Below are positions 16,877 to 61,387 of a DNA stretch of 64,000 nt, piece after piece; positions within the stretch are counted from its first letter, which is position 1, and every line of letters begins with the position of its first letter. Below the pieces are notes generated by a model that was given only the letters and a program-made list of their open reading frames with translations, was not told where the DNA came from and did no database searches. A program made the position numbers and the translations under genes. The stretch is taken from positions 100,285 to 164,284 of IMG/VR virus record IMGVR_UViG_3300043399_000371, one strand, 5' to 3'. The stretch comes from a virus. Its lineage: Duplodnaviria > Heunggongvirae > Uroviricota > Caudoviricetes.

Positions 16877-16877
16877 A

Positions 16878-22402: not shown

Positions 22403-22419
22403 TATTTTCCTATATCTTG

Positions 22420-23017: not shown

Positions 23018-23133
23018 TGGCGCTGCTGCTAGGATTCGAACCTAGATCTCTTCCTTGACATGGAATTTTAGTATGCTGTACGTATCCATTACTGGATCAC
23101 TTTTTAAGTATCCTACCATTAGACGACAGCAGC
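23018..23133 (-). pseudogene. interrupted tRNA-Asp(GTC)-like element: 5' and 3' halves separated by ~41-nt insert carrying a GNRA hairpin
   Basis: 3' half: anticodon stem ATTCC/GGAAG with loop ATGTCAA, T-arm CTAGGTTCGAATCCTAG, then CAGCAGC-G-CCA. The pairing 5' half GCTGCTG-TC-GTCT-AATGGTA lies ~115 nt away. The insert contains ATCCA-GTAA-TGGAT. Confidence 0.4.
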
Positions 23134-23135
23134 TT

Positions 23136-23215
23136 TGGTGCGAATGGCCGGGATCGAACCGGCACGACCTTTCGGTCGGCAGATTTTCGTACCACTATAG
23201 CTTTCGCTACCCATA
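23136..23215 (-). pseudogene. tRNA-like element (perfect T-arm, Ser-like variable arm CGACCGAAAGGTCG) lacking a resolvable D-arm and anticodon arm
   Basis: T-arm GCCGGTTCGATCCCGGC then CATTCGC-A-CCA. The only 5' partner is GCGAAAG, which makes it 67 nt, too short for a tRNA. Confidence 0.35.
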
Positions 23216-23316
23216 TTTAGTAAACATAGTTTGTGGTCTGGACTTTATCTTTACCATACTATTATAAATAGTTTAGGTAGTGCCTGTCAAGTCTCTACAC
23301 CTCCAAAGGGAATCAT

Positions 23317-23781
23317 ATGAAATTACGCAAATATACGAAAGAGCAATTAGAACAAGCGGTTTTAACATCAGTATCTCTTAGACAAGTCTTGGAAAAACTA
23401 AACGTTAAAATGGCAGGAGGTAATTATTCCACTCTTAAAAAAGCAATCAAGTATTACAATCTAAATACAGATCATTTTACAGGAATGAATCTTAAAGGTA
23501 GATCATTACCACCAAGACGAAGACCAATCAAAGATTATCTAACAAAAGAGTCTGGTGTACAATCAAATAAACTCAGAAAATATTTACTTGATGAAAATGT
23601 ATTCCAACATCAATGTTCATCTTGTAATCTAACTTCATGGTTAGATTCAAAAATTCCACTTGAACTCGATCATATAGATGGTGATAACATGAATAACGAA
23701 TTATCCAATCTTCGACTTCTTTGTCCGAACTGTCATGTTCTAACACCAACGTATAGAGGCAAAAACATACGAAAAACCTAA
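23317..23781 (+). CDS. HNH homing endonuclease
   Basis: ELDHIDGDNMNNELSNLRLLCPNCHVLTPT. This is the only plus-strand gene within the minus-strand tRNA cluster. Confidence 0.75.
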   Translation: MKLRKYTKEQLEQAVLTSVSLRQVLEKLNVKMAGGNYSTLKKAIKYYNLNTDHFTGMNLKGRSLPPRRRPIKDYLTKESGVQSNKLRKYLLDENVFQHQCSSCNLTSWLDSKIPLELDHIDGDNMNNELSNLRLLCPNCHVLTPTYRGKNIRKT

Positions 23782-23782
23782 G

Positions 23783-24029
23783 TTTGGCTCGGGGTTGGCA
23801 TTTTAAAGCTTTCTCCGAATTTAAGCACATTCACACTAGAAGTTTCCTATCTAGGTGCTCAATTTACTTAAGTCTGCTGCGGCTACCAATTACGCCACAC
23901 TCGCAAAAATCAACAGGATACTTTTTAGATGTCTGCTCTACCAATGAGCTATTCTTCCAAGCGGAAAAAGTTGGGGTCGAACCAACTACCTAACATTTAT
24001 GTTAGAATTGCTGCGTGTATCCTAAAACT
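23783..24029 (-). other. cluster of degenerate tRNA-like pieces (D-arm AGCTCATTGGTAGAGC; T-arm GTTGGTTCGACCCCAAC; 6-nt-loop anticodon-like hairpin)
   Basis: Canonical arm motifs are present, but no complete cloverleaf with a paired acceptor could be built by hand. Confidence 0.35.
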
Positions 24030-24104
24030 TGGTGCCTCTTGCCGGTTATGCTCCAACGACTACGGGTTACAAATCCGTTGTTTTTCTAATTAAACTAAAG
24101 AGGC
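24030..24104 (-). tRNA. tRNA-Thr(TGT) with non-canonical T-loop (AGCATAA)
   Basis: Acceptor GCCTCTT/AAGAGGC, D-arm GTTT/AAAC, anticodon loop TTTGTAA. CCA is encoded. Confidence 0.5.
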
Positions 24105-24458
24105 TATAAAATCTTTATTTATATTTTCTATGGGTACAACTATAAGTTTTATGTTATTTTGATTAATAACACTATCTATCTTTTCTTTATCCTTTATTAT
24201 AAGGTATTCATTTTTTGTATCGAAAAAAACATTACCAACTTTAAAATCTGGATAATATCTATGATGAATACCGTTTTTGTCTTTCCAAATAAATGGTTTT
24301 GGCCTTTCCCATTCTACTTCAAGTTCCTCAAGAATAGTTGCAAACATTATTTCATATGAACTATGTAGGTAAACATCACTACCATCTTTTTTACGGAACC
24401 AAATTTTATTTTTAGAAGTATGACCACCTAAGTTATTTTTGATAGCCAAATCTCTCAT
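24090..24458 (-). CDS. PD-(D/E)XK nuclease-fold protein (YYPDF...DTK), possible homing-type nuclease
   Basis: Shares the Y(Y/F)PDF motif with ORF 1..393. Its last 5 codons overlap the tRNA-Thr 5' end. Confidence 0.45.
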   Translation of the reverse strand: MRDLAIKNNLGGHTSKNKIWFRKKDGSDVYLHSSYEIMFATILEELEVEWERPKPFIWKDKNGIHHRYYPDFKVGNVFFDTKNEYLIIKDKEKIDSVINQNNIKLIVVPIENINKDFIASLV

Positions 24459-24923
24459 TTTTTCTTTGAATTCTGGTGGGTGTCCAGTTAAAGCCCTTCC
24501 CCATTTTCTTCCTATAAACTGAGGTCTTGCAATATTAGGATTATCTTCTTATGTCAATCCTTTATTCCAAGGAGATTTCCCTTTTCTTCCATTTTGGATT
24601 TTTCTGTTTGGATTATCTTTACATCTTTGTTCGTGTTGCAATAAAGATGAATTTTTTCCATACTCTTTTAAACAGTATTTACATTTTAACATATATTATA
24701 TTTTATAATAATTCTTTTACGACTGACTCCTTGTTTTGTTCCGCCTCTCTTATTCGGAACCATTTCACCCTTGAATACTAGGCCGGCAGGGTCAGAGGTA
24801 AGTAGTTATAGTTGATACGTGCTAGTTGCTGTGTTGTCGGACTCGCACCGTTAGCTTTCTAATTGTATGCCTACAACTGATTTCTCAACATCTACAACAA
24901 AGTGTCATGCGTAAAAGAACTAT

Positions 24924-24999
24924 TGGTGCCTGTAGTTGGGATCAAACCAACGACCTATCGGTTATCGACCGATTGCTCTATCAACTGAGCTATACAGGC
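24924..24999 (-). tRNA. tRNA-Ile(GAT)
   Basis: Acceptor GCCTGTA/TACAGGC, D-arm GCTC/GAGC, anticodon stem ATCGG/CCGAT, loop TCGATAA, T-loop TTTGATC. Confidence 0.65.
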
Positions 25000-25102
25000 A
25001 AACTTGGTCACAGATCAGTCTATGCCATCGGTTACTGCGGTAGCCGATTATTTTCAAGACAGGCAGAGGTGTGTTATTTAAGGCGCACAACATTTCCTAA
25101 AT

Positions 25103-25184
25103 TGGTGGGTTGGGTAGGAATCGAACCTACTTGCCGAAGCCACGGGGTTACAGCCCGCTGCCCTACCATTAGAGCATCCAACCC
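25103..25184 (-). tRNA. tRNA-Tyr(GTA) with variable-arm mini-hairpin
   Basis: Acceptor GGGTTGG/CCAACCC, anticodon stem GCGGG/CCCGT, loop CTGTAAC, variable arm GGCTTCGGCAA, T-arm GTAGGTTCGATTCCTAC. Confidence 0.7.
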
Positions 25185-25227
25185 ATGTTTCTACTATATC
25201 ACAACTTTACTACTGATGCAACATTTT

Positions 25228-25305
25228 TGGTAGTGATGGTTGGAATCGAACCAACACCATTCTTCCTTATGAGGGAAGCGCACAGACCATTTATGCTACA
25301 TCACC
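25228..25305 (-). tRNA. tRNA with CAT anticodon (Met or Ile2), copy 1
   Basis: Acceptor GGTGATG/CATCACT, anticodon stem CTTCC/GGAAG, loop CTCATAA, T-arm GTTGGTTCGATTCCAAC. Confidence 0.65.
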
Positions 25306-25310
25306 ATATT

Positions 25311-25389
25311 TGGCTCCGCATTAGGGAATCGAACCCTACTAGCCATTGATTAACAGTCAAGCCCATGCACCTTGCTCGGGTTCTGCGGA
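25311..25389 (-). tRNA. tRNA-Asn(GTT)
   Basis: T-arm TAGGGTTCGATTCCCTA, acceptor TCCGCAG/ATGCGGA (mismatch at 7:66), anticodon loop CTGTTAA in stem TTGA/TCAA. Confidence 0.55.
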
Positions 25390-25458
25390 ATCGATACTAC
25401 AGGTTAGCTTTATAACATTCCAATATGTTTTTTTATATTGCTGGACCTAACCTAAAAC

Positions 25459-25536
25459 TGGTTGCGGAGGATGGATTCGAACCACCGACCTTCAGCTTAT
25501 GAGGCTGACGAGATGACCAGACTTCTCTACTCCGCA
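25459..25536 (-). tRNA. tRNA with CAT anticodon (Met or Ile2), copy 2
   Basis: Acceptor TGCGGAG/CTCCGCA, D-arm GAGA/TCTC, anticodon stem TCAGC/GCTGA, loop CTCATAA, T-loop TTCGAAT. Confidence 0.65.
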
Positions 25537-25543
25537 ACAAAAC

Positions 25544-25620
25544 TGGTGGAAGATATCGGATTTGAACCGATCTGAATATCCGCATTGCAAGTGCGGCGAA
25601 CACCCCTAGCATTCCCATCC
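25544..25620 (-). tRNA. probable tRNA-Ala(TGC); 5' boundary and D-arm unresolved
   Basis: Anticodon stem CCGCA/TGCGG with loop CTTGCAA, T-arm ATCGGTTCAAATCCGAT, 3' ATCTTCC-A-CCA. No clean 5' acceptor partner was found. Confidence 0.4.
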
Positions 25621-25636
25621 CCCGAATTATTATATA

Positions 25637-25714
25637 TGGCGACTCAGACGGGATTCGAACCCGTGATATCTTGCTCGACAGGCAAGTGCATTAGACCAAC
25701 TATGCTACTGAGCC
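25637..25714 (-). tRNA. tRNA-Asp(GTC)
   Basis: Acceptor GGCTCAG/CTGAGTC, D-arm GCAT/ATGC, anticodon stem CTTGC/GCAAG, loop CTGTCGA, T-arm ACGGGTTCGAATCCCGT. Confidence 0.7.
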
Positions 25715-25809
25715 AAAAATGTTTCGCTGTCACGGCTTTTTGCGAAACTTCTCACGAAAGAATCTCTTGATTCCTTACCGTACCATTCGATGTGTGTGAG
25801 ATATTTTAA

Positions 25810-25893
25810 ACCATATTAAAGTAAACTAATCAGGTACACTATATAGTCTACGACAATCACTCAAGCTTATTGACTAGCATACTTTAATATGGT
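25810..25893. repeat. 12-nt inverted repeat ACCATATTAAAG / CTTTAATATGGT flanking ~60 nt
   Basis: Exact reverse complements at 25810..25821 and 25882..25893. On the minus-strand transcript they would form a 12-bp stem. Confidence 0.7.
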
Positions 25894-26003
25894 GACGGTA
25901 TAAGGAATCTATCTCCGTCTGTGCAGAAGTCATTTCAACCATCCTGCGAGGGTTGTCCACCATATAAAGGGTGAACCCGGTGTCCCCTGCGCCTCTGCAT
26001 CTA

Positions 26004-26103
26004 ACCATATTAAAATACACTAGTAAGAAGATCAATCCAATTGGCTGATGATTGCTTCTTTAGGTTGCCAAACCCGTAACTAACTAATGTACTTTAATAT
26101 GGT
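26004..26103. repeat. inverted repeat ACCATATTAAAA / CTTTAATATGGT; right arm includes the CCA end of tRNA-Lys
   Basis: 11/12 complementarity. The right arm at 26092..26103 overlaps the tRNA-Lys terminal ACCA. Confidence 0.65.
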
Positions 26104-26174
26104 ACGGGCAGAGGGATTCGAACCCACAACTTATCGGTTAAAAGCCGATTACTCTACCATTGAGTTATACCCGC
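26100..26174 (-). tRNA. tRNA-Lys(TTT)
   Basis: Acceptor GCGGGTA/TGCCCGT, D-arm ACTC/GAGT, anticodon stem ATCGG/CCGAT, loop CTTTTAA, T-loop TTCGAAT. Confidence 0.7.
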
Positions 26175-26321
26175 AAAATCTTACCACTCTTGTCACTATC
26201 CATAACAGGACTCCTTTTATTAATGGTTGGCATTACGAACTTTAGCCGTACTTCTAACGTGAGTACCGAAAATGTATCGTAGACACATCGTTTTCTTACG
26301 CCCACAAGGGATTTGAGGAAT

Positions 26322-26398
26322 TGGTGTCTCCAGAGGGACTTGAACCCACAACCAACGGCTTATGAGGCCGCTGCTCTGACCGATTGAGCTATAGAGAC
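26322..26398 (-). tRNA. tRNA with CAT anticodon (Met, fMet or Ile2), copy 3
   Basis: Acceptor GTCTCTA/TGGAGAC, D-arm GCTC/GAGC, anticodon stem GCGGC/GCCGT, loop CTCATAA, T-loop TTCAAGT. Confidence 0.65.
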
Positions 26399-26441
26399 TT
26401 AATCTTCAACAGTACGCATTATACAGGATCAACCAACTTTG

Positions 26442-27083
26442 TCAATAGGTCAAATGTTCATGTTGATTCTTAATTTTCTTCTTAAGCATCGTCTGAATTC
26501 CCGGATTCACTACTAATGCAGATTTCACCATTTCTTTACGAATAAAATTCCGCATGAATGATGTATCTTCATTACTAGGATCGTTAATATACACGATTTT
26601 CTTTCTCGATGCCCAATCAACAATTTCTTCTTTCTCTGTAATCAAGAAAGGTCGAACAACATTTTTATTACGATAAGGAATCAGTTTCGGTGTTCCATGT
26701 AGAGAACTCCAAATCCATGTTTCCAATACGTCACCAAGATGATGTCCAGTAACAACCATATCAAACTGACTAAGAAACTTATATCGTTCCTCTCGCCAAA
26801 ACTCTTCTTTACTTTGTTCTTTAGGTTTTGTCGAAGTCAATTTACCTACAACAAGAGGCAGAGAATTATTTTTACAGTAATGTGTAAGAAACAGTTCTGC
26901 TTCCTGTCCATGTTGTGTGCCGTGATTGAAATAAGCAACTTGTACTTCATGATTCCGTTTAAGGAAGTCTAGAACTACCATGCTATCAATACCACCAGAA
27001 CAAGCAACAGTAACTTTCCGTTGCACACCAAATAGCATTTTCAACATATTCAATATTCCTTTTAGGATACCATATTGAAACAC
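26442..27083 (-). CDS. tilS: tRNA(Ile)-lysidine synthetase TilS (catalytic N-type ATP-pyrophosphatase domain only); true start probably the internal Met at ~27047
   Basis: PP-loop VACSGGIDS, VTGHHLGDVLET (E. coli TilS: TAQHLDDQCET) and NDPSNEDTSFMRNFIR (DESNQDDSYDRNFLR). The listed GTG start lies inside an inverted-repeat stem. Confidence 0.7.
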   Translation of the reverse strand: MFQYGILKGILNMLKMLFGVQRKVTVACSGGIDSMVVLDFLKRNHEVQVAYFNHGTQHGQEAELFLTHYCKNNSLPLVVGKLTSTKPKEQSKEEFWREERYKFLSQFDMVVTGHHLGDVLETWIWSSLHGTPKLIPYRNKNVVRPFLITEKEEIVDWASRKKIVYINDPSNEDTSFMRNFIRKEMVKSALVVNPGIQTMLKKKIKNQHEHLTY

Positions 27084-27164
27084 ACTCTTTGCAAATATCC
27101 CACCGCTCCGGAACGGTTACAACGGGTCCAACGTCAGGGGTTGGCGAATGTATTTCAATATGGT
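27069..27164. repeat. perfect 12-nt inverted repeat ACCATATTGAAA / TTTCAATATGGT; right arm includes the tRNA-Glu ACCA end, left arm abuts the TilS RBS
   Basis: Exact reverse complements at 27069..27080 and 27153..27164. Confidence 0.7.
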
Positions 27165-27236
27165 ACTCGGAGTGGGAATTGAACCCGACATTTCATCCTT
27201 GAAAGGGATGCGTCCTAACCACTAGACGACCCGAGC
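27161..27236 (-). tRNA. tRNA-Glu(TTC)
   Basis: Acceptor GCTCGGG/TCCGAGT (G-U pairs at both ends), D-arm GTCT/GGAC, anticodon stem CATCC/GGATG, loop CTTTCAA. T-stem is weak. Confidence 0.6.
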
Positions 27237-27296
27237 ATATTTTATATAAATTTTTAAAGAACGTTGCTGACTTGTTTCGTTCAGCGCATGGTGTGA

Positions 27297-27325
27297 ACTA
27301 TACTGGAGTCGCACACACTTGTCAA
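27297..27325 (-). promoter_or_regulatory. consensus sigma70 promoter TTGACA-N17-TATAGT ~55 nt upstream of tRNA-Glu
   Basis: Minus-sense ggtgTTGACAagtgtgtgcgactccagTATAGTtcac. Confidence 0.6.
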
Positions 27326-27341
27326 CACCACCAACAAAAAA

Positions 27342-27366
27342 CCCCAAGATTTTTTAGGTCTTGGGG
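27342..27366. terminator. rho-independent terminator hairpin CCCCAAGAT-TTTTTAG-GTCTTGGGG with A-run/T-run flanks (copy 1 of 2)
   Basis: Identical sequence recurs at 30342..30366. Confidence 0.7.
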
Positions 27367-27391
27367 TTTCTTTTTTAAGTTTAGTTAGATT

Positions 27392-28105
27392 TTATGCAAA
27401 CCTACCTGCAACTTTTCCTAAGAAACCACCAACTTTAGATGCTCCGGTATTGATAGCTGTCTTTACTTTATTCTTGACATTTTCAACACCTGTATCTATA
27501 CGTTTTGCTAATACACCGCGTCTGCCCTCAACATTACCGGCAGTAGCACTAGCAGATTTTCTCTTTGTCTCAGCAGTTTTATATGCTTCTTTTGCTTTTG
27601 CTGCCCTATCCTGAACTGTCTTAGACTTATTAACAGCAAATGCATACTTTGCTCTCTCTAATGGATTTTTACCAACAGGCGCAGTTCTGGCAGCATCTGC
27701 GGCAGATTTGGCCTTTACACCCATTTGAGTTGACTTTTCTTTTGCTTGTTGTGCTTGAGATGTAGCTTTCTGTTTTGCTCTATTTGCTAAGAACCCTTTA
27801 ATACCATATCTAGCACCAGCAACAAATGTACCAATTGACTCATCCAAAAGAACATCATACAGTTCTTCATACAATGGTGTATTAATATCATATCCAGTAA
27901 TTGCTTCTAAAGCAGACTCTTTCAAAGTTGGATACTTAAAGTTTTCCTCAAAATAATCCATAAGAATAGATGTGATATATGCATCTTCTTCTGTCATAAC
28001 ATAATCTTCATCTACATCATAGTTTTCTTCGATAAACTGATCAAGAATAGTAAAGAAAAGTTCTTGTCTTTCTTGAATTTGCTCTTCTGTAAGTTGTTGT
28101 AACAT
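27392..28105 (-). CDS. hypothetical protein with acidic N-half and Ala/Lys-rich low-complexity C-half
   Basis: 237-aa ORF. Confidence 0.5.
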   Translation of the reverse strand: MLQQLTEEQIQERQELFFTILDQFIEENYDVDEDYVMTEEDAYITSILMDYFEENFKYPTLKESALEAITGYDINTPLYEELYDVLLDESIGTFVAGARYGIKGFLANRAKQKATSQAQQAKEKSTQMGVKAKSAADAARTAPVGKNPLERAKYAFAVNKSKTVQDRAAKAKEAYKTAETKRKSASATAGNVEGRRGVLAKRIDTGVENVKNKVKTAINTGASKVGGFLGKVAGRFA

Positions 28106-28136
28106 AAAAATCCCTATAGCGTTATATTATTTATAC

Positions 28137-29903
28137 TTATTTAGCTTTCTTTTTCTGAATCAAAATTGGTTTTGGTGCAGAATATTCTTTACCTCTTGCC
28201 TTTTCTTGTTCTTCTGGTCTATCTATCTCATACTCACCATTATGTTGTTTAGCGTGTTCAATATGATCATCACTAACATCATGCGTAAAATTAGAATGGT
28301 GTTGAACATCGCTAGTGGAAGTTGTTGGTGTTGTTACTAAAATAGCACCAGCATCTTTACCATTTTTAGATTTGAATCTTTCTTTTGGTAAAAATTCATT
28401 ATCCTTAAATCTAGAATCTGTTGGAATTTTATGACCATCAACATCAACTAATCTTGGATGAAGAATATGTTGTTTTTGATAATCGTATCTTCTAGCTTTA
28501 CCATCATCACCAACTACAGTTCTATGACCGTAATGTGCTTTATCTGGAGTGGTTGGTCTACCTTCACCGTCATAATGTCCCTCTGGTCCTTCAGCTTTTT
28601 CACTATCAGATAATTCATGTTCTTCTCTACCTTCAGACCAATACTTAGCATGAGTTACGTGTTGTTGGAATTTTTTATCCATTTCTCCACCACGTTTCAT
28701 ATTTGTTACCATATATGAATTTTTTGGTGGTGTCATATTTCCTTCATCATTTTTAATATCTTCACCTGAAGATTGTGTAGCATGAATTGTCTGACGAACA
28801 CGAATTCTATCTTTTTTCTTATTTTCAGTAATTTCTTTTCCGTGTTTCACTTTTGGACCAGTATTAGAATATGTTACATGATAACCATTTTCTGGATCAT
28901 GTAATTCTGTCGTTTTTCCATAAGAATTAGCAATAATAGCTGGTCTTCCTTCTGTTGCACGTTGTCTGTTTAAATGTTTAATAACGTGTCTTGAACTACG
29001 ATCAGTTTCATCCACAACATTAGGTCTAAAAAGAAAACGTTTTTTTCTTTTATCTGCTGCATCTGCACGATTTCTTAGTGAATGTGTGTGGGCTAAAACC
29101 CAATCGCTTGTCATTGCTGGATCGTGTTTAGCTTGTTCATGACAGGCTCTTCTCACAGCAGCATTTACATATTGTGATTCTGCTTTAGGCGCAAAACAAG
29201 TTCCACGCGATGTATCAACAACACCTTCAGCATCAACACCACCACCACAACCTTCTGTCTGTGCTGGACAAGTATTTAAAATGTGATGTCTCTGATTTTC
29301 TCCGTGTCCTGATGTGTAAACAGCATGACCAGCAACACCTTTAGATGCTGCTGCTTCAAAAGTTCTACCTTGTTCATCATGTTCATGTTTTACTGTATCT
29401 GTCTTTTCGCCTTCATCTGTTGTATCTTTACTGTCTAGGTGTCTTGCTTTATGTAAACGTTCAATAGCTTCTTTTTCTGCTTTAATTTGTTCTTGTTTTG
29501 GTTTTGAAAAATGGTCTTCTAAAACTTTTTTATGCACACTTTCAATTTGACCAAGACCTAAAGGTGGACGATGTTCGCCACCATAAATTTTTGCTCTTGC
29601 TTCATTCCTTTCATTCATACCCATCGCACCAGATTTTTCACTACCTTCCCACATATGTCTAGGAACTACAATTCCTTTAGCTTTTGATTTACCGTCACCA
29701 TCATGTTTAAAAAGTAAACGTTTTGGGTTAGGATGATCATGAACGGATTCTTTAATCATATCGGCATTTTTGATTGGAATATAATCATTAACACCAAAAA
29801 GAGAATTTTGTACATTATGTTCTTGGGTATATTGTGGATGTGTCTCATCCATATCAATAGTGTGTATATCAGACTCTTTCAAAAATGTTTTAAATGATAA
29901 CAT
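28137..29903 (-). CDS. CTS-bearing large His/Asp/Lys-rich protein with Cys cluster; candidate packaged internal protein
   Basis: N-terminus MLSFKTFLKESD is CTS-like. 588 aa, very His-rich. Contains CPAQTEGCGGG...TCF...ACHEQ. Confidence 0.5.
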   Translation of the reverse strand: MLSFKTFLKESDIHTIDMDETHPQYTQEHNVQNSLFGVNDYIPIKNADMIKESVHDHPNPKRLLFKHDGDGKSKAKGIVVPRHMWEGSEKSGAMGMNERNEARAKIYGGEHRPPLGLGQIESVHKKVLEDHFSKPKQEQIKAEKEAIERLHKARHLDSKDTTDEGEKTDTVKHEHDEQGRTFEAAASKGVAGHAVYTSGHGENQRHHILNTCPAQTEGCGGGVDAEGVVDTSRGTCFAPKAESQYVNAAVRRACHEQAKHDPAMTSDWVLAHTHSLRNRADAADKRKKRFLFRPNVVDETDRSSRHVIKHLNRQRATEGRPAIIANSYGKTTELHDPENGYHVTYSNTGPKVKHGKEITENKKKDRIRVRQTIHATQSSGEDIKNDEGNMTPPKNSYMVTNMKRGGEMDKKFQQHVTHAKYWSEGREEHELSDSEKAEGPEGHYDGEGRPTTPDKAHYGHRTVVGDDGKARRYDYQKQHILHPRLVDVDGHKIPTDSRFKDNEFLPKERFKSKNGKDAGAILVTTPTTSTSDVQHHSNFTHDVSDDHIEHAKQHNGEYEIDRPEEQEKARGKEYSAPKPILIQKKKAK

Positions 29904-29948
29904 AAAATATTTTCCTATAAATAAAGTATTTCTTCTATTTATAAGATT

Positions 29949-30023
29949 TGGAGTGCGTAGTAGGAATCAAACCTACCTAAAACTGTTTTGCAGACAGTTG
30001 CCTCATCATTCGACCATACGCAC
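29949..30023 (-). tRNA. tRNA-Cys(GCA)
   Basis: Acceptor GTGCGTA/TACGCAC, anticodon stem ACTGT/ACAGT, loop CTGCAAA, T-arm GTAGGTTTGATTCCTAC. Confidence 0.65.
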
Positions 30024-30028
30024 ATAAT

Positions 30029-30124
30029 TGGCGGTGTGTAATGGATTCGAACCATTGGGGCAGTTTATTAGACTACCCAACTTCTTAGCAGGAAGCCGCC
30101 TTCGACCAACTCAGCCAACACACC
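30029..30124 (-). tRNA. tRNA-Ser(GCT), type II with very long variable arm
   Basis: Acceptor GGTGTGT/ACACACC, 3-bp D-stem, anticodon stem GCTTC/GAAGT, loop CTGCTAA, T-arm AATGGTTCGAATCCATT. Confidence 0.6.
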
Positions 30125-30133
30125 TTAAATTTT

Positions 30134-30224
30134 TGGCGGAAGTTAAAGGATTCGAACCCTCACCGGCGACTAACCGATGGCGACGGTTTTCAAGACCGTT
30201 TGTACACCATGTACGCTAACTTCC
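30134..30224 (-). tRNA. tRNA-Ser(TGA), type II
   Basis: Acceptor GGAAGTT/AACTTCC, anticodon stem ACGGT/ACCGT, loop CTTGAAA, long variable arm, T-loop TTCGAAT. Confidence 0.6.
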
Positions 30225-30229
30225 AATTT

Positions 30230-30304
30230 TGGCAGGGATGTCGGGATTCAAACCCAACCTAACAGAGTCAAAGTCTGTTGTGCTAATCGCTACACTACAC
30301 CCCA
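30230..30304 (-). tRNA. tRNA-Gln(TTG)
   Basis: D-arm GTGT/GCAC, anticodon stem ACAGA/TCTGT, loop CTTTGAC, T-arm TTGGGTTTGAATCCCGA. Position 1:72 is a U-U mismatch. Confidence 0.6.
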
Positions 30305-31576: not shown

Positions 31577-32389
31577 TTATTTGTTGATCATTAGTCCAGT
31601 CATGTTACTTGGAACGATGATTGTCTGAACTTTACCGTTTTTGATACCCTCAGAGATGTTTAGTGCTGCTTGGGCATTCATGAAGGCAATTGAACTAGCA
31701 CTATTATTTGCTAGTGCTGCCATACGTCGAGCCTCTGCTTCAGCCGTTTTTACTTCAACCTCTTTTTGTAGAAGTTCGTTTTTAGCACGAACAAGTTCAT
31801 TTGCACTTTTTACCACACTATCAGCAGGAAGAATATTTCGAACTAGAACCTGATTGATAGTAATAGCACCATCAAGTTTCTCTTCACGTAGAGAAGCAAG
31901 CATAATTTCACGCACCTTGGTTTCGATAGCCTGACGATTATCATTCATGGTTAGTGCTTCGTATTCTCTTGATGCTTTATAAATTGCGTTTCGTGCAGAT
32001 TGAACAATATAGTTGTACATCAGAAAAACGTCACCATCATGATTTGCGTGGAATGCCTTCGATTTCTGACTATAGAGTTCCGAAACCTGAGAAGGATTGA
32101 TGTTGTAAATCACCACAGCATCAAAATCTTTCATCGTGCTATTATCTTTGGCTAGTGGAGTAAGATCATTTACCTGAACATTAACATCTTTGACAGGAAA
32201 AGTGATGATACTGCCCACGATGGTTTGATTAAAAGAACCCGGTAGAAGTTCACCTTGCTGAATTTGTTTATCAAATCCAACACGAACACCGACTTCACCA
32301 GTTTCGATACGCGCACAACCAACTGCGGTAGCCACAGCAAGACCAAGAACGGAGAATTTCACAAATTTATTCATAATATATTTCCTCAA
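31577..32389 (-). CDS. SPFH/band-7 (stomatin/HflKC-like) lipoprotein
   Basis: Lipobox LAVATAVGC. SPFH-like core ...VIYNINPSQV... C-terminal coiled coil. Confidence 0.6.
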   Translation of the reverse strand: MRKYIMNKFVKFSVLGLAVATAVGCARIETGEVGVRVGFDKQIQQGELLPGSFNQTIVGSIITFPVKDVNVQVNDLTPLAKDNSTMKDFDAVVIYNINPSQVSELYSQKSKAFHANHDGDVFLMYNYIVQSARNAIYKASREYEALTMNDNRQAIETKVREIMLASLREEKLDGAITINQVLVRNILPADSVVKSANELVRAKNELLQKEVEVKTAEAEARRMAALANNSASSIAFMNAQAALNISEGIKNGKVQTIIVPSNMTGLMINK

Positions 32390-32571
32390 AAAATTGCAAC
32401 AATCAAAAGAACCAAACTCAAACTAGCAAGTGCGATAATGATAGCAAACCCAAGATCCCATGTCAACTTATAAATTTGCTTTCTGGTCATGTTTTTGAAC
32501 ATTATCACACCAAGATAGATCAAAAGACAGAATAAAAGAAAGAAAAAAATGGCATTTATCATACTAGTCAC
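32386..32571 (-). CDS. small 2-TM membrane protein, NfeD-like partner of SPFH gene
   Basis: 61 aa with two hydrophobic helices. 4-nt overlap with the SPFH start. Confidence 0.5.
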   Translation of the reverse strand: MTSMINAIFFFLLFCLLIYLGVIMFKNMTRKQIYKLTWDLGFAIIIALASLSLVLLIVAIF

Positions 32572-33589
32572 TCTCTTTCATCAAAAATTTGTTACTAATT
32601 GCCTTAAAATGGATTTCTGGAACCTCAATACACTTAAAAACAATACCCTCACGTTCTTTTTTATCATTTAGTACACTCTTAGACTCAGCAAATTGAAGAA
32701 TATCTTCAAGAGTTTCGTTAAAAAGTTTCCAATCAAGAGCAATTACAGGAGCATATTGTAGTTGAAGCTTGTGACAAAACTCATTTCGGTCATAAGCATT
32801 CATGTATTTTCCAGTTTTCACATCATAAACGTCGAAAACACGGAATTCGAAGTCAGGAAAATTGTAATAATTCCCCTGAACACCGGGACCAATCAGTTCA
32901 CCTTGAATAGCAATACCAAGATGACCCCTAAGTTTTTCTTCAACATTGTATTTTTTAGCAATTTTCCAGAATGCATTGTTTTCATCTTCTTTTAGATCAA
33001 GATTCCGAGAACAAACATGGAAAATACCTTCAGTATCCATATACATTGTGCATGAAGAACCCTCAAGTTTTTCTGTAATTTCCCAAGTGTAACCCTTTTC
33101 CCTCCAAATCTCAAGTTCTTTTTTAAGATTCTGAATACGTTCCTGATCAGTCTTAGGTACAAGTGTTGGAAAATTACCTTTTACCTGTCCAGCAAGTTGA
33201 GCAGGAATTGGTTTTTCCCATTTTTGAATACCTAGAATTTCAGTAACATCCATGCCTTCTAGATTATCTTCTTGAGCAATTTGTGCAGTAAATGGTTCAA
33301 GAGGAAGCAAAAGACCCTGACTAATTTGACCACGAAGTTTGACAGTTCGTAGACGTTCACCTTTTACACCATTAAATTCCCGTGGTTCCTTACCTTTACT
33401 CAGAAATGGTGCAAGTTCAGTTGGTATCCAAGAATCAATTTCACAATACACGGCAAGATCATCAATTTTATACTCACCCTTTTTAACCACAACTTTCCAA
33501 CCACCGACAACTGCTACTTCAATAGCATCAGCTTCAGGAATCGGTTGAATATCATCAATTTTTCTTACAGTAGCAAGTTTTCGCATCAT
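32564..33589 (-). CDS. ATP-dependent RNA ligase, DraRnl/Rnl5 (DRB0094) family
   Basis: N-terminal MMRKLATVRKIDDIQPIPEADAIEVAVVGGWKVVVKKGEYKIDDLAVYCEIDS matches the family N-domain. Nucleotidyltransferase motif I is EKLEGSS (KxDG-type). Confidence 0.65.
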   Translation of the reverse strand: MMRKLATVRKIDDIQPIPEADAIEVAVVGGWKVVVKKGEYKIDDLAVYCEIDSWIPTELAPFLSKGKEPREFNGVKGERLRTVKLRGQISQGLLLPLEPFTAQIAQEDNLEGMDVTEILGIQKWEKPIPAQLAGQVKGNFPTLVPKTDQERIQNLKKELEIWREKGYTWEITEKLEGSSCTMYMDTEGIFHVCSRNLDLKEDENNAFWKIAKKYNVEEKLRGHLGIAIQGELIGPGVQGNYYNFPDFEFRVFDVYDVKTGKYMNAYDRNEFCHKLQLQYAPVIALDWKLFNETLEDILQFAESKSVLNDKKEREGIVFKCIEVPEIHFKAISNKFLMKESD

Positions 33590-45933: not shown

Positions 45934-46155
45934 TTAAGCCCTATCAGCACGATCTTGAAAGTATTTGACGCGACTCAGAAGTTCCTGACAAATCTCCTCC
46001 GCAGCAACATCACCAAGCTTCATAGCAATCGACTCAAGCATTGAAGGAACATAACCGCGAGTATAAGCCAGTTTGTCGCCCTTGTCAATGAATTCTTTTC
46101 CGAGTTCTTCCATCAGAACTTTAGCGAGAATCTTGACGGTTTCGGTATTGTTCAT
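45934..46155 (-). CDS. hypothetical protein
   Basis: Promoter at ~46185..46217. Confidence 0.5.
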   Translation of the reverse strand: MNNTETVKILAKVLMEELGKEFIDKGDKLAYTRGYVPSMLESIAMKLGDVAAEEICQELLSRVKYFQDRADRA

Positions 46156-46225
46156 TTTGATCTACCTTGTTTGTTTGACTGAAGACTAGATTCTAGGGGA
46201 ACTTTGTGAGACTGTCAACTACTTT

Positions 46226-46366
46226 TTAGAACCAGTCTCGATTCTTCTTCAGTTCCGCCTTGTCCCGACTGCGCTCGCCCTTTTTGGAAGCTTTGTGTGA
46301 TCCTGCGCCCGACTTGGTGAACGCGGCGGGAGCGTAGGGATTGCGAGGTTTGATAGTGCGGCTCAT
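46226..46366 (-). CDS. small basic protein (46 aa; internal start M26 of track ORF)
   Basis: Promoter TTGACA-N17-TATACT at ~46400..46432. RBS ggaga. Confidence 0.4.
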   Translation of the reverse strand: MSRTIKPRNPYAPAAFTKSGAGSHKASKKGERSRDKAELKKNRDWF

Positions 46367-46415
46367 TTGATGTTCTCCAGTAAAGAAATCAGTATATAGG
46401 AACTTTGCGAGACTG

Positions 46416-46841
46416 TCAAACAAAAAATCGGGAAATGTCATGGTCGAACCGTGCTTTCTGTTTGGTCAGAACAGCATCAGGAACCCCATGCACGTTATCA
46501 TAGGCACCATTGGAAGTCAAGACAAACGGAAACTTCCCGGTCAGTTTGTTGTAATCGTTGATGTACTGCATGAGTTCCCAACCCTGCGTGAAGGTATTGG
46601 AAACGACAACATTATTCCCAATGCCAAGATTCAAAAAAGTATGCTCAAAGCACCAAGCATGGGCATCAGACAGTTTGCTGGCATTGAAGTGATAGTCCCC
46701 ACTAGGGCTAACAAAAAACTTATCCGCCTCAAGATGAACGAATCCAGCAGTCTCCACCAGCATCTTAGCGAAAGTGGATTTGCCAGAACCCGAAATGCCG
46801 CGAACAAGAATCAGTTGACCGATCATTTTTTTACTCTCCAA
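46416..46841 (-). CDS. P-loop kinase (AAA_33/polynucleotide-kinase-like)
   Basis: Walker A VRGISGSGKST. Confidence 0.6.
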   Translation of the reverse strand: MESKKMIGQLILVRGISGSGKSTFAKMLVETAGFVHLEADKFFVSPSGDYHFNASKLSDAHAWCFEHTFLNLGIGNNVVVSNTFTQGWELMQYINDYNKLTGKFPFVLTSNGAYDNVHGVPDAVLTKQKARFDHDISRFFV

Positions 46842-47115
46842 TGCAGGGAACTTTGTAGCCAGCGTAGGAACGGATCTTAGAAGTGCGATCCGTATGGAAT
46901 TCCTTGATCTTAACAGAAACTCCGAGATGTTGCAAGCGTTGAATCAGAGTAGTCCCATCAAGATCCTCTTCAAGATATGCATGATCTCCACGCATATGAG
47001 AGTAGGGACTGATCATCAGACGAATACCAATCTTGTCAAGCACCGCGAGAGGAACCTTGTACCAACCATGACCCGGATCGGTGTAGCAGTTGATAGTGAT
47101 CTTCTTCATGCTCAT
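46831..47115 (-). CDS. hypothetical protein
   Basis: Promoter at ~47150..47182. Confidence 0.45.
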   Translation of the reverse strand: MSMKKITINCYTDPGHGWYKVPLAVLDKIGIRLMISPYSHMRGDHAYLEEDLDGTTLIQRLQHLGVSVKIKEFHTDRTSKIRSYAGYKVPCIGE

Positions 47116-47189
47116 CCTTGTGTTTGTTGACTACAGAACGAATCATAGCATGGTGCCGGAAGCATTGTCAACCCCCGGCACCATCTTTT

Positions 47190-47804
47190 TTATCGAACAA
47201 GCGTGATGCCAGTTGCGACTTCAGCTTTCACAACGTATGCGCGAGCATTGACGTAGGTAGTGTTCAGTTCCTTTTCTACCATGCGGACGATATCACCCCG
47301 TTTGGGAGTGGTAGCGGCGTTTTCCCGAATGATACGCTCCACGGCAGCGTGACGGGCAAGATCGGGCTTCCTGCCGCGTTTCTTGGGTGCCTCGGCAACG
47401 GTAGCACCAGCAGCAACAGGACCAGCAGCGACCGATTCAACGGCAACCGGAGCGGGTTCAGTAAAGGTAGCTTTTTGTTCAATCATGATAACATCTCCTT
47501 CAAAGAGTTCAGGCTTTTCAATCCTCAGAGTTTCAAGACGATCCTTCGCGTATGCTTCAATTTCATCAGTAGAAGGATCAATGTTTTCGTTGATCATTTT
47601 GACAACGAATTCGACTGCCGCTTTAGCGAGAATTTCATTCTCCACTTTGGTCTTACCGGGAACAACCCCGAAAGAATTGATGACCCCAACGGCAAATTTG
47701 TTACTGTCACGGGAAGAACGAATCCCATCACCAATTGCATTAACTGCGCGGAGAACCGATTTGCCTTCAATGCCATAGGAACCGAGAATCAGATCGTAGT
47801 TCAT
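47190..47804 (-). CDS. hypothetical protein (start at MNYDLIL; basic C-terminal tail RGRKPDLARH)
   Basis: Consensus promoter 47837..47864 (TTGACA-N16-TATAAT). Conserved leader ...actggagtacacaag-ATG. Confidence 0.5.
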   Translation of the reverse strand: MNYDLILGSYGIEGKSVLRAVNAIGDGIRSSRDSNKFAVGVINSFGVVPGKTKVENEILAKAAVEFVVKMINENIDPSTDEIEAYAKDRLETLRIEKPELFEGDVIMIEQKATFTEPAPVAVESVAAGPVAAGATVAEAPKKRGRKPDLARHAAVERIIRENAATTPKRGDIVRMVEKELNTTYVNARAYVVKAEVATGITLVR

Positions 47805-47836
47805 CTTGTGTACTCCAGTCAAGTTGCGATGATTAA

Positions 47837-47864
47837 ATTATACAGGATTCGTTCAGCGTGTCAA
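47837..47864 (-). promoter_or_regulatory. consensus sigma70 promoter plus conserved leader cassette (copy 1 of 3)
   Basis: gtagTTGACAcgctgaacgaatcctgTATAATttaatcatcgcaacttgactggagtacacaagATG. Confidence 0.6.
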
Positions 47865-47874
47865 CTACTTTGTT

Positions 47875-48150
47875 TCAAAATTTGTAGACTTTTCCACCAG
47901 CACGGATTTCAGTAACTCCATCAAGGAAGACCGACCGATAGCCCATCTTGTGAACATTGAATGCCGACACAAGGTCTTCCTTGTTTTGAATCACATTGAT
48001 GCCACCCTTACTATACTTCCGAACTCCCGTGCGACCATTGATCTTGCGGGTAGTACCATCTTGTTTCGACTCAAAAGTGGCAGTAAAGAACTTGCCTTTT
48101 TGAGCGGCGATGATTTTACGGATCTCAGCACGTTTAGCGATCATTTCCAT
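47875..48150 (-). CDS. hypothetical basic protein
   Basis: Promoter/leader cassette copy 2 at 48151..48212. Confidence 0.5.
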   Translation of the reverse strand: MEMIAKRAEIRKIIAAQKGKFFTATFESKQDGTTRKINGRTGVRKYSKGGINVIQNKEDLVSAFNVHKMGYRSVFLDGVTEIRAGGKVYKF

Positions 48151-52194: not shown

Positions 52195-52575
52195 TTAGTT
52201 CTTGACAAAATTTGACTTGTATGATAGGAACAAATCATAGGCGAGTTCCATTTCATCTTTATCAATTGCTTTTTTGATAATATTTTTGAGATCAATTTTT
52301 AGTTGACTTTCGATACCCAATACGTTTGGGTAGTAAGTATGCTCGATAGAGATAGCAATACCAGCATCTTTTAGAATTTGCAAGTCCTCATCAAAGCCAC
52401 AATCATCAATATCACCAACATAAGAGTGTCCATTCATTTCCGCAACATTTTTTGCATCTGTAAATGGAATTTTATAGAGTGCGTGAATTGCGCGGACAAC
52501 CTCAGACTTGTTAATGTGCCTATTGTATACAATAGGAATACGAATAGCGAGACGTTTCATTTTATTATTCCTCAA
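52195..52575 (-). CDS. hypothetical protein
   Basis: 126-aa ORF. Confidence 0.45.
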   Translation of the reverse strand: MRNNKMKRLAIRIPIVYNRHINKSEVVRAIHALYKIPFTDAKNVAEMNGHSYVGDIDDCGFDEDLQILKDAGIAISIEHTYYPNVLGIESQLKIDLKNIIKKAIDKDEMELAYDLFLSYKSNFVKN

Positions 52576-52820
52576 AAAGAATTACATTTGACACCGCGAC
52601 CAAGTTCATCCATCACTTGACGGGCATTTCCACCTTCACCAATTACGAATTTATAACCATCAATACAACGAACTTCAGTCATACCATTGATGCCGAATGA
52701 TACCGCAGATTGGTTTGGAATACTAGCCCCAAACATAACAGGAAGTGTGATTGCTGCGAGGACTCCTAGAATGCAAATGACAATCATCACTTCAATCAGA
52801 GTAAAACCTTTGATTTTCAT
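52572..52820 (-). CDS. type IV pilin/pseudopilin-like protein with class-III (prepilin peptidase) signal
   Basis: MKIKGFTLIEVMIVICILGVLAAITLP matches the G/FTLIE prepilin N-terminus. Confidence 0.55.
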   Translation of the reverse strand: MKIKGFTLIEVMIVICILGVLAAITLPVMFGASIPNQSAVSFGINGMTEVRCIDGYKFVIGEGGNARQVMDELGRGVKCNSF

Positions 52821-52821: not shown

Positions 52822-53028
52822 TTATTCCACCAGTTTGTTGATTGCTTGTACGATCAGTTTAGCTTCATCTTTTGTGAATGTCAACCGAGTATGTGCTTTC
52901 TTGCTATCAATGCTATCATAGTATCTGATCTCTAGCAAGTCCAATCCATCACGATCCGGACCGATTTCATACCGATAATCCATGTTATAGAGTTCAAACA
53001 TCATTTCAAGTTCAAGCTTGTTGTTCAT
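52822..53028 (-). CDS. hypothetical protein
   Basis: 68-aa ORF. Confidence 0.4.
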   Translation of the reverse strand: MNNKLELEMMFELYNMDYRYEIGPDRDGLDLLEIRYYDSIDSKKAHTRLTFTKDEAKLIVQAINKLVE

Positions 53029-59969: not shown

Positions 59970-60533
59970 TCATAGATTTGTTTTCCCGTGATGTGACCGA
60001 ACTTTTTTATTGGAAAGAAGTGCATCTATTTCTTCCCATGACCAAAGACCCATATCCTTTTGTGGTCGAGCATCAATACCAACATCAATTGCTCGACCAT
60101 CAATCTGCACATTTCCATGAACATGACCGAAAAGATGATAAGAACCGTAGTGCATCTTTTCCCATTCATAGATTGGATAGTGAAACATGATAACATCTTT
60201 CCCATCAAGTTTCAACTTTTTGTAGTGCTGAATACTCTCAAAGTATTTCGACATATTATTATAATTTTTGGTAAGCCATTGATCATGGTTTCCAAAAATG
60301 AAATGGAGTCTACCTTTGAGTTGTTTCAGAATCTCTTCTGTCTTCTTACTATCCCGGAATGAGAAATCACCCAGAAGATATACCTCATCAGTCAGAGAAA
60401 CTGTATCATTCCAGATTTGAATCATTTCAGCATCCATCTCATCTGCCACAGAATGACCTTTGCGAGTCTCTGGGGCAAATTTCATGATTGATTTGTGGCC
60501 GAAATGGTTGTCACTTGTAAACCAAATAGTCAT
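59970..60533 (-). CDS. calcineurin-like metallophosphoesterase (candidate RNA end-healing phosphatase)
   Basis: SDNHFGH...LLGDFSF...GNHD...GHVH. 4-nt overlap with the downstream Rnl1-like gene. Confidence 0.65.
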   Translation of the reverse strand: MTIWFTSDNHFGHKSIMKFAPETRKGHSVADEMDAEMIQIWNDTVSLTDEVYLLGDFSFRDSKKTEEILKQLKGRLHFIFGNHDQWLTKNYNNMSKYFESIQHYKKLKLDGKDVIMFHYPIYEWEKMHYGSYHLFGHVHGNVQIDGRAIDVGIDARPQKDMGLWSWEEIDALLSNKKVRSHHGKTNL

Positions 60534-61387
60534 TTAATATTATCCTGAATAAAATTACGCATATATTCTAGTCGCATCTGTTCATCCATCATTGTAAACT
60601 GATCACCAATAGAAGTCAAGTGGTCAATCAAAGGATAGTATTCCTCATCGACAAGTTTTTTATTTAGTGAGAAAATATCCTTCTTACGGGCAATAGCTTT
60701 CAAAGTCAAATAATAAGGAGACTTCAGTTTAAGAACTTTTCCCGACTGTTGCCCGTAAACAACAACCCCTTCATGATGAGACAATTTTACTTCATTGACA
60801 ATATTTGAAAACCTTGAAATGCCCCAATGTGGTCGCATAACATCAAAAGCGTTAGCAATCAAATCCAAATCTTCTTCATGCTTCAAGCTAGAGAAATATG
60901 GAGAAGAATCATTAACATCTCGCGCACCAATCAGATATGCACCAACTTTTTCAGGAATGATATGTGGATCATCGGAATCAACAATTTCAAAAATATAGGT
61001 ATACTTCTGCTCTCGGATAAGTGGCTCCAGATGCTCAAGATATTTCTTAGCGATATCCACAAAAATAGAATCCAATGATCCTGTTGTGGAAATAACAACA
61101 TCGTTCACTTCTGGAACCCAAGTTGCCGCTGCCATGAAACCATTGATTTTATTGACATATAGGCACACTTCATCACGGTCAATATCCATACCATTTTCAA
61201 ATCGATTGAAGATTTTGGTGAATGGACGGATTACAATTTTGCCATCAGAAGTCTCAACGTGTCCGCGAGATTCAATCAGTTCTGGATCTTGATTCCAGAG
61301 ATTGTCAAAGAAAACTTTTTTGACATATTTCTTGACAAATAGTCCCGGATACCGTTTGGATTCTTTTCGTGTGATCAATGGTTTCAT
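60530..61387 (-). CDS. rnlA: RNA ligase 1 (T4 RnlA-like)
   Basis: IESRGHVETSDGKIVIRPFTKIFNRFE aligns to T4 Rnl1 [30 protein letters not shown]. Motif I is VNKINGF (K-x-N/D-G). Confidence 0.6.
   Translation of the reverse strand: MKPLITRKESKRYPGLFVKKYVKKVFFDNLWNQDPELIESRGHVETSDGKIVIRPFTKIFNRFENGMDIDRDEVCLYVNKINGFMAAATWVPEVNDVVISTTGSLDSIFVDIAKKYLEHLEPLIREQKYTYIFEIVDSDDPHIIPEKVGAYLIGARDVNDSSPYFSSLKHEEDLDLIANAFDVMRPHWGISRFSNIVNEVKLSHHEGVVVYGQQSGKVLKLKSPYYLTLKAIARKKDIFSLNKKLVDEEYYPLIDHLTSIGDQFTMMDEQMRLEYMRNFIQDNIK

Follow-up and report, generated by a model that had tools for sequence, protein, structure and literature searches.

In this study we describe a small gene on the minus strand of a 64,000-nucleotide stretch of viral DNA (hereafter the window; positions 100,285 to 164,284 of IMG/VR record IMGVR_UViG_3300043399_000371), located at positions 52572 to 52820, the product of which we term a mini-pilin. 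The protein of 82 amino acids (aa) is a chimera by design, in which the entry segment universal to pilins and pseudopilins is joined to a phage-only head, and its N-terminus is, as judged from curated sequence profiles, a bona fide class III (prepilin) signal. We consider the chances to be about even that the mini-pilin is a substrate of the host prepilin peptidase and acts as a non-canonical subunit engaging the type IV pilus (T4P) machinery and/or the type II secretion system (T2SS) of the host.

The open reading frame (ORF) listing and the sequence place the ATG at 52820-52818 and the TGA at 52574-52572, the 82 codons between them being translated as MKIKGFTLIEVMIVICILGVLAAITLPVMFGASIPNQSAVSFGINGMTEVRCIDGYKFVIGEGGNARQVMDELGRGVKCNSF. 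The leader MKIK, with a net charge of +2, is followed by Gly(-1), Phe(+1), Glu(+5) and approximately 20 hydrophobic residues (MKIKG|FTLIEVMIVICILGVLAAITLP), and the entire protein can be divided as MKIKG|FTLIEVMIVICILGVLAAITLPVMFG-ASIPNQS-AVSFGINGMTEVRCIDGYKFVIGEGGNARQVMDELGRGVKCNSF. The gene and its parts are as follows.

52572..52820, minus strand: complete coding sequence of the 82-aa prepilin-type mini-pilin, stop codon included (ORF listing, PF07963, TIGR02532)
52806..52820, minus strand: leader peptide MKIKG (residues 1-5), Gly(-1) being the predicted prepilin peptidase cleavage point (sequence)
52731..52805, minus strand: mature N-terminus FTLIE... and hydrophobic alpha1N helix (residues 6-30), including Phe1 and Glu5 (structure prediction, conservation)
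52707..52730, minus strand: variable, low-confidence linker (residues 31-38), which holds the least conserved columns of the alignment
52584..52706, minus strand: phage-specific beta-module (residues 39-79; predicted strands, conservation, dN/dS)
52665-52667 and 52584-52586, minus strand: invariant Cys52 and invariant Cys79, respectively (alignments)
52826..52831, minus strand: Shine-Dalgarno-like GGTGGA, 5 nt 5' of the ATG (sequence)
52856..52884, minus strand: possible sigma-70-type promoter TTGACA-17-TAAACT, approximately 36 nt 5' of the ATG and within the preceding 68-aa ORF (consensus scan)

Sigma-70-like sites are only marginally enriched in this region (33 versus a chance expectation of 23.3 +/- 5.3), and the evidence for the promoter is correspondingly weak.

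The sequence-only reading that drew attention to this gene had described its N-terminus as that of a prepilin peptidase substrate with Gly(-1) and Glu(+5), and this description is borne out by Pfam model PF07963 (N_methyl), matched at 29.8 bits (gathering cut-off 21.2; E 4e-7), and by TIGR02532 (IV_pilin_GFxxxE), matched at 32.5 bits (cut-off 16.3; E 4.9e-8). A six-frame scan of the 64 kb with a relaxed class III motif returned three matches, of which only that of the mini-pilin stands at the N-terminus of an ORF; since the curated thresholds are passed and this is the sole N-terminal class III motif in the window, chance occurrence of the signal is excluded. Among 47 unique family members from viral loci, Gly(-1), Phe1, Thr2, Leu3, Ile4, Glu5 and Met7 are present in every sequence, behind leaders mostly of 5-6 aa with a net charge of +1 to +3, and the segment is not a generic transmembrane (TM) helix lacking the Gly(-1)/Glu(+5) spacing. 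The features of the Flp/Tad (type IVc) pilins are absent, as G|FTLIE has no Tyr at +6 and no Flp family occurs among the Pfam or NCBIfam matches.

The mini-pilin ORF is a real gene under purifying selection, since at least 172 full-length homologues exist at 51-70% identity and dN/dS is 0.05 in both the motif and the C-terminal module. By pooled pairwise comparison, dN/dS is 0.054 for the signal motif (residues 1-12), 0.24 for the transmembrane helix (residues 13-31) and 0.054 for the beta-module (residues 39-79). A separate alignment of 44 sequences (A2) shows no variation at G43, G46, E49, R51, C52, G55, Y56, F58, Q68, G76 or C79; of these head residues, C52, G55 and C79 alone remain at 100% in the broader set of 47, the rest being conserved at 0.83-0.96. 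Exactly two Cys residues are found in the C-terminal module of all 47 members, and this invariant pair suggests a periplasmic disulfide and, with it, a periplasmic location, such that the head is probably periplasmic and disulfide-bonded.

An AlphaFold2 (AF2) model built with the family alignment (mean predicted local distance difference test score, pLDDT, of 79) contains a single helix at residues 8-29 (pLDDT 80-94), a linker at residues 31-36 with pLDDT below 50, and four beta-strands (39-43, 46-53, 56-61 and 66-68). Cys52 and Cys79 are candidates for a C-terminal disulfide like that of the pilin D-region, in a model of which the confidence is low at the C-terminus. The helix ends near residue 29 and the alpha1C helix is absent from the model; the canonical type IV pilin fold (an alpha1 of approximately 50 residues, with alpha1C packed on a 4-5-stranded antiparallel sheet) was not recovered, and structure searches returned no fold match for the beta-module.

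The earlier description of the protein as pilin-like consequently requires division: it is apt for the N-terminal 30-40 residues, the only part to resemble pilins or pseudopilins, and does not extend to the remainder, which lacks alpha1C and comprises a phage-specific C-terminal module with no match to a pilin fold. The PDB sequences matched by the N-terminus are those of Geobacter PilA-N (the best, at 38 bits; 61 aa), PilA, PilE, MshA and PulG, while of the 20 bacterial sequences closest to the window protein by tblastn, 15 are GspG and 5 PilA, the former sharing ...IEVM.V...ILGVLAA...P..MG with the mini-pilin. GspG (TIGR01710) also provides the best partial match at equivalog level, although at 32.7 bits this falls short of the cut-off of 88.85 and covers only model positions 1-30 of 134. 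The PilA/PpdD equivalogs NF041775 and NF007862 likewise failed (27.2 bits versus 400 and 27.0 versus 138, respectively), the N-terminus aligning alone. Across the family, 41 of 44 members match TIGR02532, and the NCBIfam matches of the 44 are generic (GspH, PpdD, GspG, ComGC, PilA), an equivalog cut-off never being reached.

Compared to type IVa major pilins (PilA/PilE/MshA and Geobacter PilA-N), the mini-pilin is nearly identical in leader length, in G-1/F1/E5 and in the hydrophobic alpha1N sequence (38-29 bits, profile positions 2-40), and its C-terminal Cys pair recalls the pilin D-region disulfide. In contrast, this match ends at approximately residue 40, the mature protein measures 77 aa as opposed to roughly 140-160 aa, there is neither an alpha1C nor an alpha-beta loop, the head is conserved and the stem variable where pilins display the reverse, and a pilBCD context is lacking at mini-pilin loci. 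GspG differs in that it has no disulfide and in that its globular domain is absent from the mini-pilin, with no match past the first 30 model positions. In a search of bacteria and archaea employing one genome per species (185,579 species), no homologue of the head module was present among the matches listed, the alignments covering residues 1 to approximately 58 only. One near-full-length genome match (L094) was rejected as a head homologue, as it proved to be an ordinary 150-aa PilA adjoining pilBCD and aligned N-terminally only. The head module would thus be best described as not found in bacteria among the matches listed, rather than as proven absent.

The family is large and compact. An identical protein (P0001) is encoded on the 168,163-bp metagenomic contig Ga0485233_000013 (JGI 3300047548), and a large protein database yielded 172 matches at E < 1e-3, those among the 120 listed being 76-101 aa in length in all cases but one (108 aa), with 51-70% identity over nearly the full length. 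An exhaustive profile search of 1.84 billion representatives produced 248 clusters (50% identity) at E <= 1e-10, nearly all of 65-110 aa and none with an alternative domain architecture; the few longer entries match at their extreme C-terminus and appear most simply explained as fused gene calls. A number of proteins of 214-517 aa (P0139, P0141, P0173, P0190, P0203 and P0217) were observed to carry the whole mini-pilin at the extreme C-terminus, probably because gene calling has fused it to the nrdC.10-type ORF that overlaps it upstream. IMG/VR contains 239 relatives, and members reside on large contigs of 167, 318 and 374 kb that are dense in small co-oriented ORFs. Xanthomonas phage BUDD (USV40915.1) and Synechococcus phage BUCT-ZZ01 (UTS52068.1) are the two cultured phages with clear members, and of the N_methyl ORFs of cultured T4-like phages compared here, theirs alone carry the E-x-RCIDG...C module. 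Annotation pipelines already label the mini-pilin as a prepilin-type domain protein.

Matches to xcpT of 'Acinetobacter phage MD-2021a' were discarded, as they appear to derive from bacterial T2SS contigs misfiled as phage. The entries bearing this name, CAKLQH020000005.1 and CAKLQF020000005.1 (L172), carry epsF, xcpT (GspG) and lnt, and look like bacterial chromosomal contigs that are the source of misleading 'phage pseudopilin' matches. It was also observed that Aeromonas phage Asfd_1 gp157 (L167, 2276-2728) is annotated as a 150-aa protein with the GFTLIE motif from approximately residue 80; the gene is probably mis-annotated, its true start being a downstream non-ATG codon.

Prepilin-type ORFs have been listed in T4-like phages since 2006 (PMC1524935), and with these and pilin mimicry by phages already published the motif alone is not new, while a large mini-pilin family with a conserved phage-only head appears to be undescribed in the open-access literature searched. 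The prophage-encoded P-FimU of Pseudomonas F10-like phages, e.g. JBD68, takes the place of FimU at the T4P tip and blocks phages that bind there (Sztanko et al., Cell Rep 2026, PMC12952977), and 60-residue truncated PilA-like proteins of six virulent Pseudomonas phages have been proposed to be incorporated or to inhibit assembly (PMC12952977). Interference of the mini-pilin with T4P or T2SS is plausible and agrees with this speculation on the truncated proteins. P-FimU/P-PilA and the mini-pilin are phage-encoded and possess a prepilin-type N-terminus; reliance on the peptidase and pilus machinery of the host, and a role in competition between phages, are presumed for them. The truncated P-PilA proteins of 60 aa furthermore resemble the mini-pilin in consisting of 'alpha1N plus little else' and in being found in virulent phages. 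In contrast, P-FimU and the Xylella P-PilA are full-size homologues of host pilins with a pilin fold, whereas the mini-pilin is devoid of alpha1C, possesses a conserved beta-module with no bacterial counterpart among the matches listed, and is found in large T4-like environmental phages. Full-length homology to, or superposition on, a host pilin (FimU or PilA) was not obtained, the bacterial genome matches listed spanning residues 1 to approximately 58. Based on its sequence, the mini-pilin would be placed in the class III signal superfamily and outside the PilA, GspG, Flp and P-FimU/P-PilA families.

The small N_methyl ORFs of cultured T4-like phages to which the mini-pilin was compared (KVP40.0030 / VH7D gp250, of 66-67 aa; Aeromonas 44RR ORF097c; Aeh1 ORF040c; Synechococcus ACG-2014f 'pilin'; PHROGs 13280, 11263, 10597 and 3433) are also small class III signal proteins encoded in early or accessory regions. 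The KVP40-type proteins, however, have at most E..IDGQ in common with the mini-pilin and a single Cys, and look like more distant, truncated relatives, while the Aeromonas and ACG-2014f proteins have unrelated C-termini and only the signal in common with the family. Tip and Aqs1, which block T4P and so bring about superinfection exclusion (PMC12826054), and PfsE, which acts on PilC and likewise causes superinfection exclusion (PMC8764522), match the outcome proposed for the mini-pilin, namely the loss or alteration of pili and superinfection exclusion; according to those papers, however, these proteins bind PilB or PilC, and none is reported there as pilin-type. Haloarchaeal provirus pilins are assembled by the host machinery (PMC12426801), and the ratio of minor to major pilins alters pilus dynamics (PMC13249403); together with the findings on P-FimU, the truncated PilA-like proteins, Tip, Aqs1 and PfsE, these results lend plausibility to the mechanism proposed below.

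The phage assignment made in the sequence-only reading is upheld by the gene content of the window, which identifies its source as a T4-like myovirus. A megablast search of the region against GenBank phages returned no DNA match. T4-type genes on the plus strand encode the gp2 DNA-end protector, a tail-tube/baseplate protein and the baseplate hub, and those on the minus strand gp32, PhoH, an exonuclease, two RNA ligases (one of the RnlA type), DNA ligase, dCMP deaminase (cd) and an nrdC.10-type ATPase; 24 tRNA genes are also present. The closest cultured relative is Synechococcus phage BUCT-ZZ01 (46% identity for SPFH, 40% for the ligase and 40% for the pilin). The mini-pilin gene lies between the DNA ligase and nrdC.10/dCMP deaminase genes, in the direction of the early/middle-type genes and opposite to the structural genes, and its co-orientation with gp32, ligase, cd, the RNA ligases and the tRNAs would, by analogy with T4, imply early or middle expression. 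A hydropathy scan alone (as opposed to an HMM search) detected no peptidase-like polytopic ORF in the window, and processing of the mini-pilin would therefore depend on the host.

When the 63 window ORFs around the gene were compared with 82 loci, only the pilin (82/82) and the nrdC.10-type ATPase (25/82) recurred. A dedicated partner gene was rejected, the immediate neighbours (68 aa and 121 aa) recurring in 0/82 loci, and the recurrent P-loop neighbour was also rejected as a functional partner, as it is a T4-like nrdC.10-type backbone gene, the linkage of which represents backbone synteny because homologues are found in 1304 phage records. Two backbones predominate among mini-pilin loci: the first (A) consists of nrdC.10, small ORFs, the mini-pilin gene, a 338-aa protein and a ResIII/DEAD helicase, and the second (B) of a 58-aa 2-TM peptide, an SPFH/Band-7 lipoprotein, a small lipoprotein or TM protein, and the mini-pilin gene. 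In approximately 25 loci the mini-pilin gene is directly 3' of a conserved pair encoding a 2-TM peptide of 58-61 aa and the SPFH/Band-7 lipoprotein (e.g. L009, 3815-5237), a pair that may represent an envelope-remodelling module. This association is more suggestive than that with nrdC.10. An SPFH gene is also near the mini-pilin gene in L173 (4001-7114), together with a glutathionylspermidine synthase gene, and in the ORF list of Aeromonas phage 44RR the N_methyl ORF097c adjoins the SPFH ORF098c, with ORF093c being GSP synthase (PMC1524935). In the window, the SPFH lipoprotein (31577-32389, minus strand; 75% identical to a lineage-B SPFH) and its 2-TM partner (32386-32571) are both 20 kb from the mini-pilin gene, and the SPFH-pilin distance in BUCT-ZZ01 is approximately 12 kb. 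Given the separation of 20 kb, the mini-pilin is regarded as a stand-alone unit and the SPFH linkage is retained as a lead only.

It is well established that Gly(-1) is required for prepilin peptidase cleavage, while Glu5 is required neither for insertion nor for cleavage but for N-methylation, subunit registration and assembly. As bitopic proteins, pilins have their C-terminus in the periplasm, where DsbA forms their disulfide. For the mini-pilin, we infer cleavage, topology, a disulfide, T4P/T2SS engagement and a biological pay-off as follows. The T4-like phage would produce a small inner-membrane protein early or midway in infection, inserted with its leader in the cytoplasm and its C-terminus in the periplasm, and the host prepilin peptidase (of the PilD/GspO type) would cut after Gly5, i.e. 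position -1, and N-methylate Phe1. In the resulting mature product of 77 aa, a short linker would connect the alpha1N stem, which contains Glu5, to a beta-module of approximately 40 aa held by a disulfide. Through F1, E5 and alpha1N it could dock at pilin/pseudopilin sites, be it on the T4P and/or T2SS assembly platform or at the filament base, where, lacking alpha1C and bearing its conserved phage-specific head in place of a normal pilin head, it may function as a competitor, cap or terminator, such that the type IV filaments of the host would be shut down or remodelled. The likely gain would be superinfection exclusion, prevention of progeny adsorption to infected cells, or receptor remodelling. 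Given the role of Glu5 in pilins, its invariance across the family favours an interaction of the pilin type over simple anchoring, and the combination of a variable alpha1N core and a fixed head fits an entry ticket with a specific head-target contact better than a polymerising subunit.

As a more tentative extension, it is possible that the RCIDGY mini-pilins constitute a widespread, lytic-phage-only family of 'poison' or adaptor subunits, in which the F1/E5 stem would gain entry to any type IV filament machine and the head would jam or re-purpose that machine. If so, the family would inhibit or re-programme T4P/T2SS in a portable manner and across a broad range of hosts, by a mechanism unlike the substitution effected by P-FimU, and would offer a natural tool against pilus-dependent virulence.

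Several observations weigh against engagement of the filament machinery. Genes of the pil, gsp or other pilus/secretion systems are linked to the mini-pilin in 0/82 loci, and the mini-pilin N-terminus does not separate T4P from T2SS. True pilins conserve the second half of alpha1N, which is packed in the filament core, whereas in the mini-pilin this half is poorly conserved: in mature numbering, the helix-breakers G14 and P22 occur in 49% and 38% of the 47 members, and the helix has the elevated dN/dS of 0.24. The head module, in turn, is among the most constrained parts, the reverse of bacterial major pilins, which points to a specific binding partner, not necessarily one belonging to the pilus. 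A variable alpha1N core together with a fixed head thus leaves room for a protein in which the class III signal merely places a periplasmic effector on the inner membrane, with the beta-module acting on a non-pilus target.

Such a use of the signal as a simple anchor is, in our estimation, unlikely. Its conceivable targets include the blocking of genome injection by competitors (like T4 Imm/Sp), lysis timing, or phage envelope proteins such as the SPFH lipoprotein, and it would accommodate a phage-specific head as the most constrained part of the protein and a TM helix that evolves freely. The approximately 25 loci that place the gene in an envelope-targeted cluster (2-TM peptide, SPFH/Band-7 lipoprotein, and lipoprotein or TM protein), the nearby SPFH gene of L173 and the SPFH ORF adjoining the N_methyl ORF of Aeromonas phage 44RR (PMC1524935) are also consistent with this explanation, yet the linkage is not obligatory, as the distances in the window and in BUCT-ZZ01 demonstrate. 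Moreover, a generic signal-anchor has no need of an invariant G-1, F1, T2-L3-I4, E5 and M7, and a charged Glu is costly in a plain anchor unless it is put to use.

Productive incorporation, whereby the host machinery would polymerise the mini-pilin, serving as substitute or as major subunit, into pili or pseudopili that remain functional, leading to receptor masking (cf. P-FimU) or to a phage-specified filament (cf. the archaeal SNJ2 pilins), is rather improbable. The F1/E5 motif is invariant, very small pilins such as the 61-aa Geobacter PilA-N do exist, P-FimU is incorporated with pilus function kept (PMC12952977), and the SNJ2 provirus pilins form the dominant filaments via the host machinery (PMC12426801). 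These precedents are offset by the absence of alpha1C from the AF2 model and by the weak conservation of that part of alpha1N which would form the filament core. Strong purifying selection over approximately 250 clusters from divergent phages is unexpected for a surface masking domain, and a lytic cycle allows little time for filament rebuilding.

It is more doubtful still that the mini-pilin serves as a decoy without being assembled, an abundant mini-prepilin either titrating the prepilin peptidase or mimicking a full pilin pool to PilS, with a consequent fall in mature host pilins or pseudopilins. The N-terminal segment alone would suffice for this purpose and its motif is conserved, and PilS senses PilA by contacts within the membrane (Kilmury & Burrows 2016, as cited in PMC6058289). 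However, a decoy leaves the strongly conserved beta-module unexplained, transcriptional repression is slow relative to the lytic cycle, and PilS/PilR are not universal among the likely hosts. The final alternative, a virion component as also floated in the sequence-only reading, can be considered most improbable, as no direct support was found beyond the speculation that the KVP40-type pilin-like ORF may relate to attachment (PMC13142089), the gene shares its strand with the early/middle genes and is both distant from the late structural genes and oriented against them, the membrane-export signal and invariant Cys pair are typical of periplasmic proteins whereas tailed-phage virions assemble in the cytoplasm, and there is no matching PHROG with a structural annotation.

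That pilin mimics of phages are functional has been demonstrated only recently and only in a single prophage family (P-FimU), while the mini-pilin defines a much larger family of approximately 250 clusters at 50% identity that is found in virulent T4-like phages and includes two culturable phage-host pairs. If the mini-pilin acts on the filament machinery, it would show how the surface of the host is remodelled by lytic phages in the course of a single infection cycle, and it could furnish an inhibitor of pilus assembly, or a probe for it, that is compact and portable; otherwise, it would show that the class III signal has been recruited for targeting in the service of some other periplasmic function. 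Phages BUDD (Xanthomonas) and BUCT-ZZ01 (Synechococcus) make either outcome directly testable.

The following further features of the window were recorded.

9867-10237, minus strand: two-piece (permuted) tmRNA of the Betaproteobacteria type, full-length (RF01850 138 bits, RF04321 128 bits; ARAGORN tag ANDERFALAA)
16509-30304, minus strand: array of 24 tRNAs, covering most amino acids, with interspersed small ORFs
17748-19184: RtcB/Ro-like 'RNA-binding protein' (phrog_850)
32564-33589 and 60530-61387: RNA ligases
35278-36324, minus strand: weak ADP-ribosyltransferase-like protein (below cut-off)
42629-43102, minus strand: protein with a dual-specificity/PTP-type phosphatase domain (PF22785, 29.6 bits)
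46416-46841, minus strand: AAA_33 kinase-like protein

As the tmRNA is of a host-specific type, the host of the window phage is probably a betaproteobacterium, and type IV filament systems are present in the known or inferred hosts of the family phages considered here, namely Xanthomonas (BUDD), Synechococcus elongatus (BUCT-ZZ01) and the probable betaproteobacterium of the window phage. The tRNA array, the RNA-binding protein and the RNA ligases form a large RNA-repair and translation island. The GC content was observed to rise to 0.46-0.51 at 38000-42000 and 46000-48000 against a background of approximately 0.36; the ORFs within these segments (e.g. 38274-39449, phrog_2319) have no Pfam match, and the segments may represent recently acquired DNA. 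The phosphatase, the ADP-ribosyltransferase-like protein and the AAA_33 protein are candidate host-takeover enzymes.

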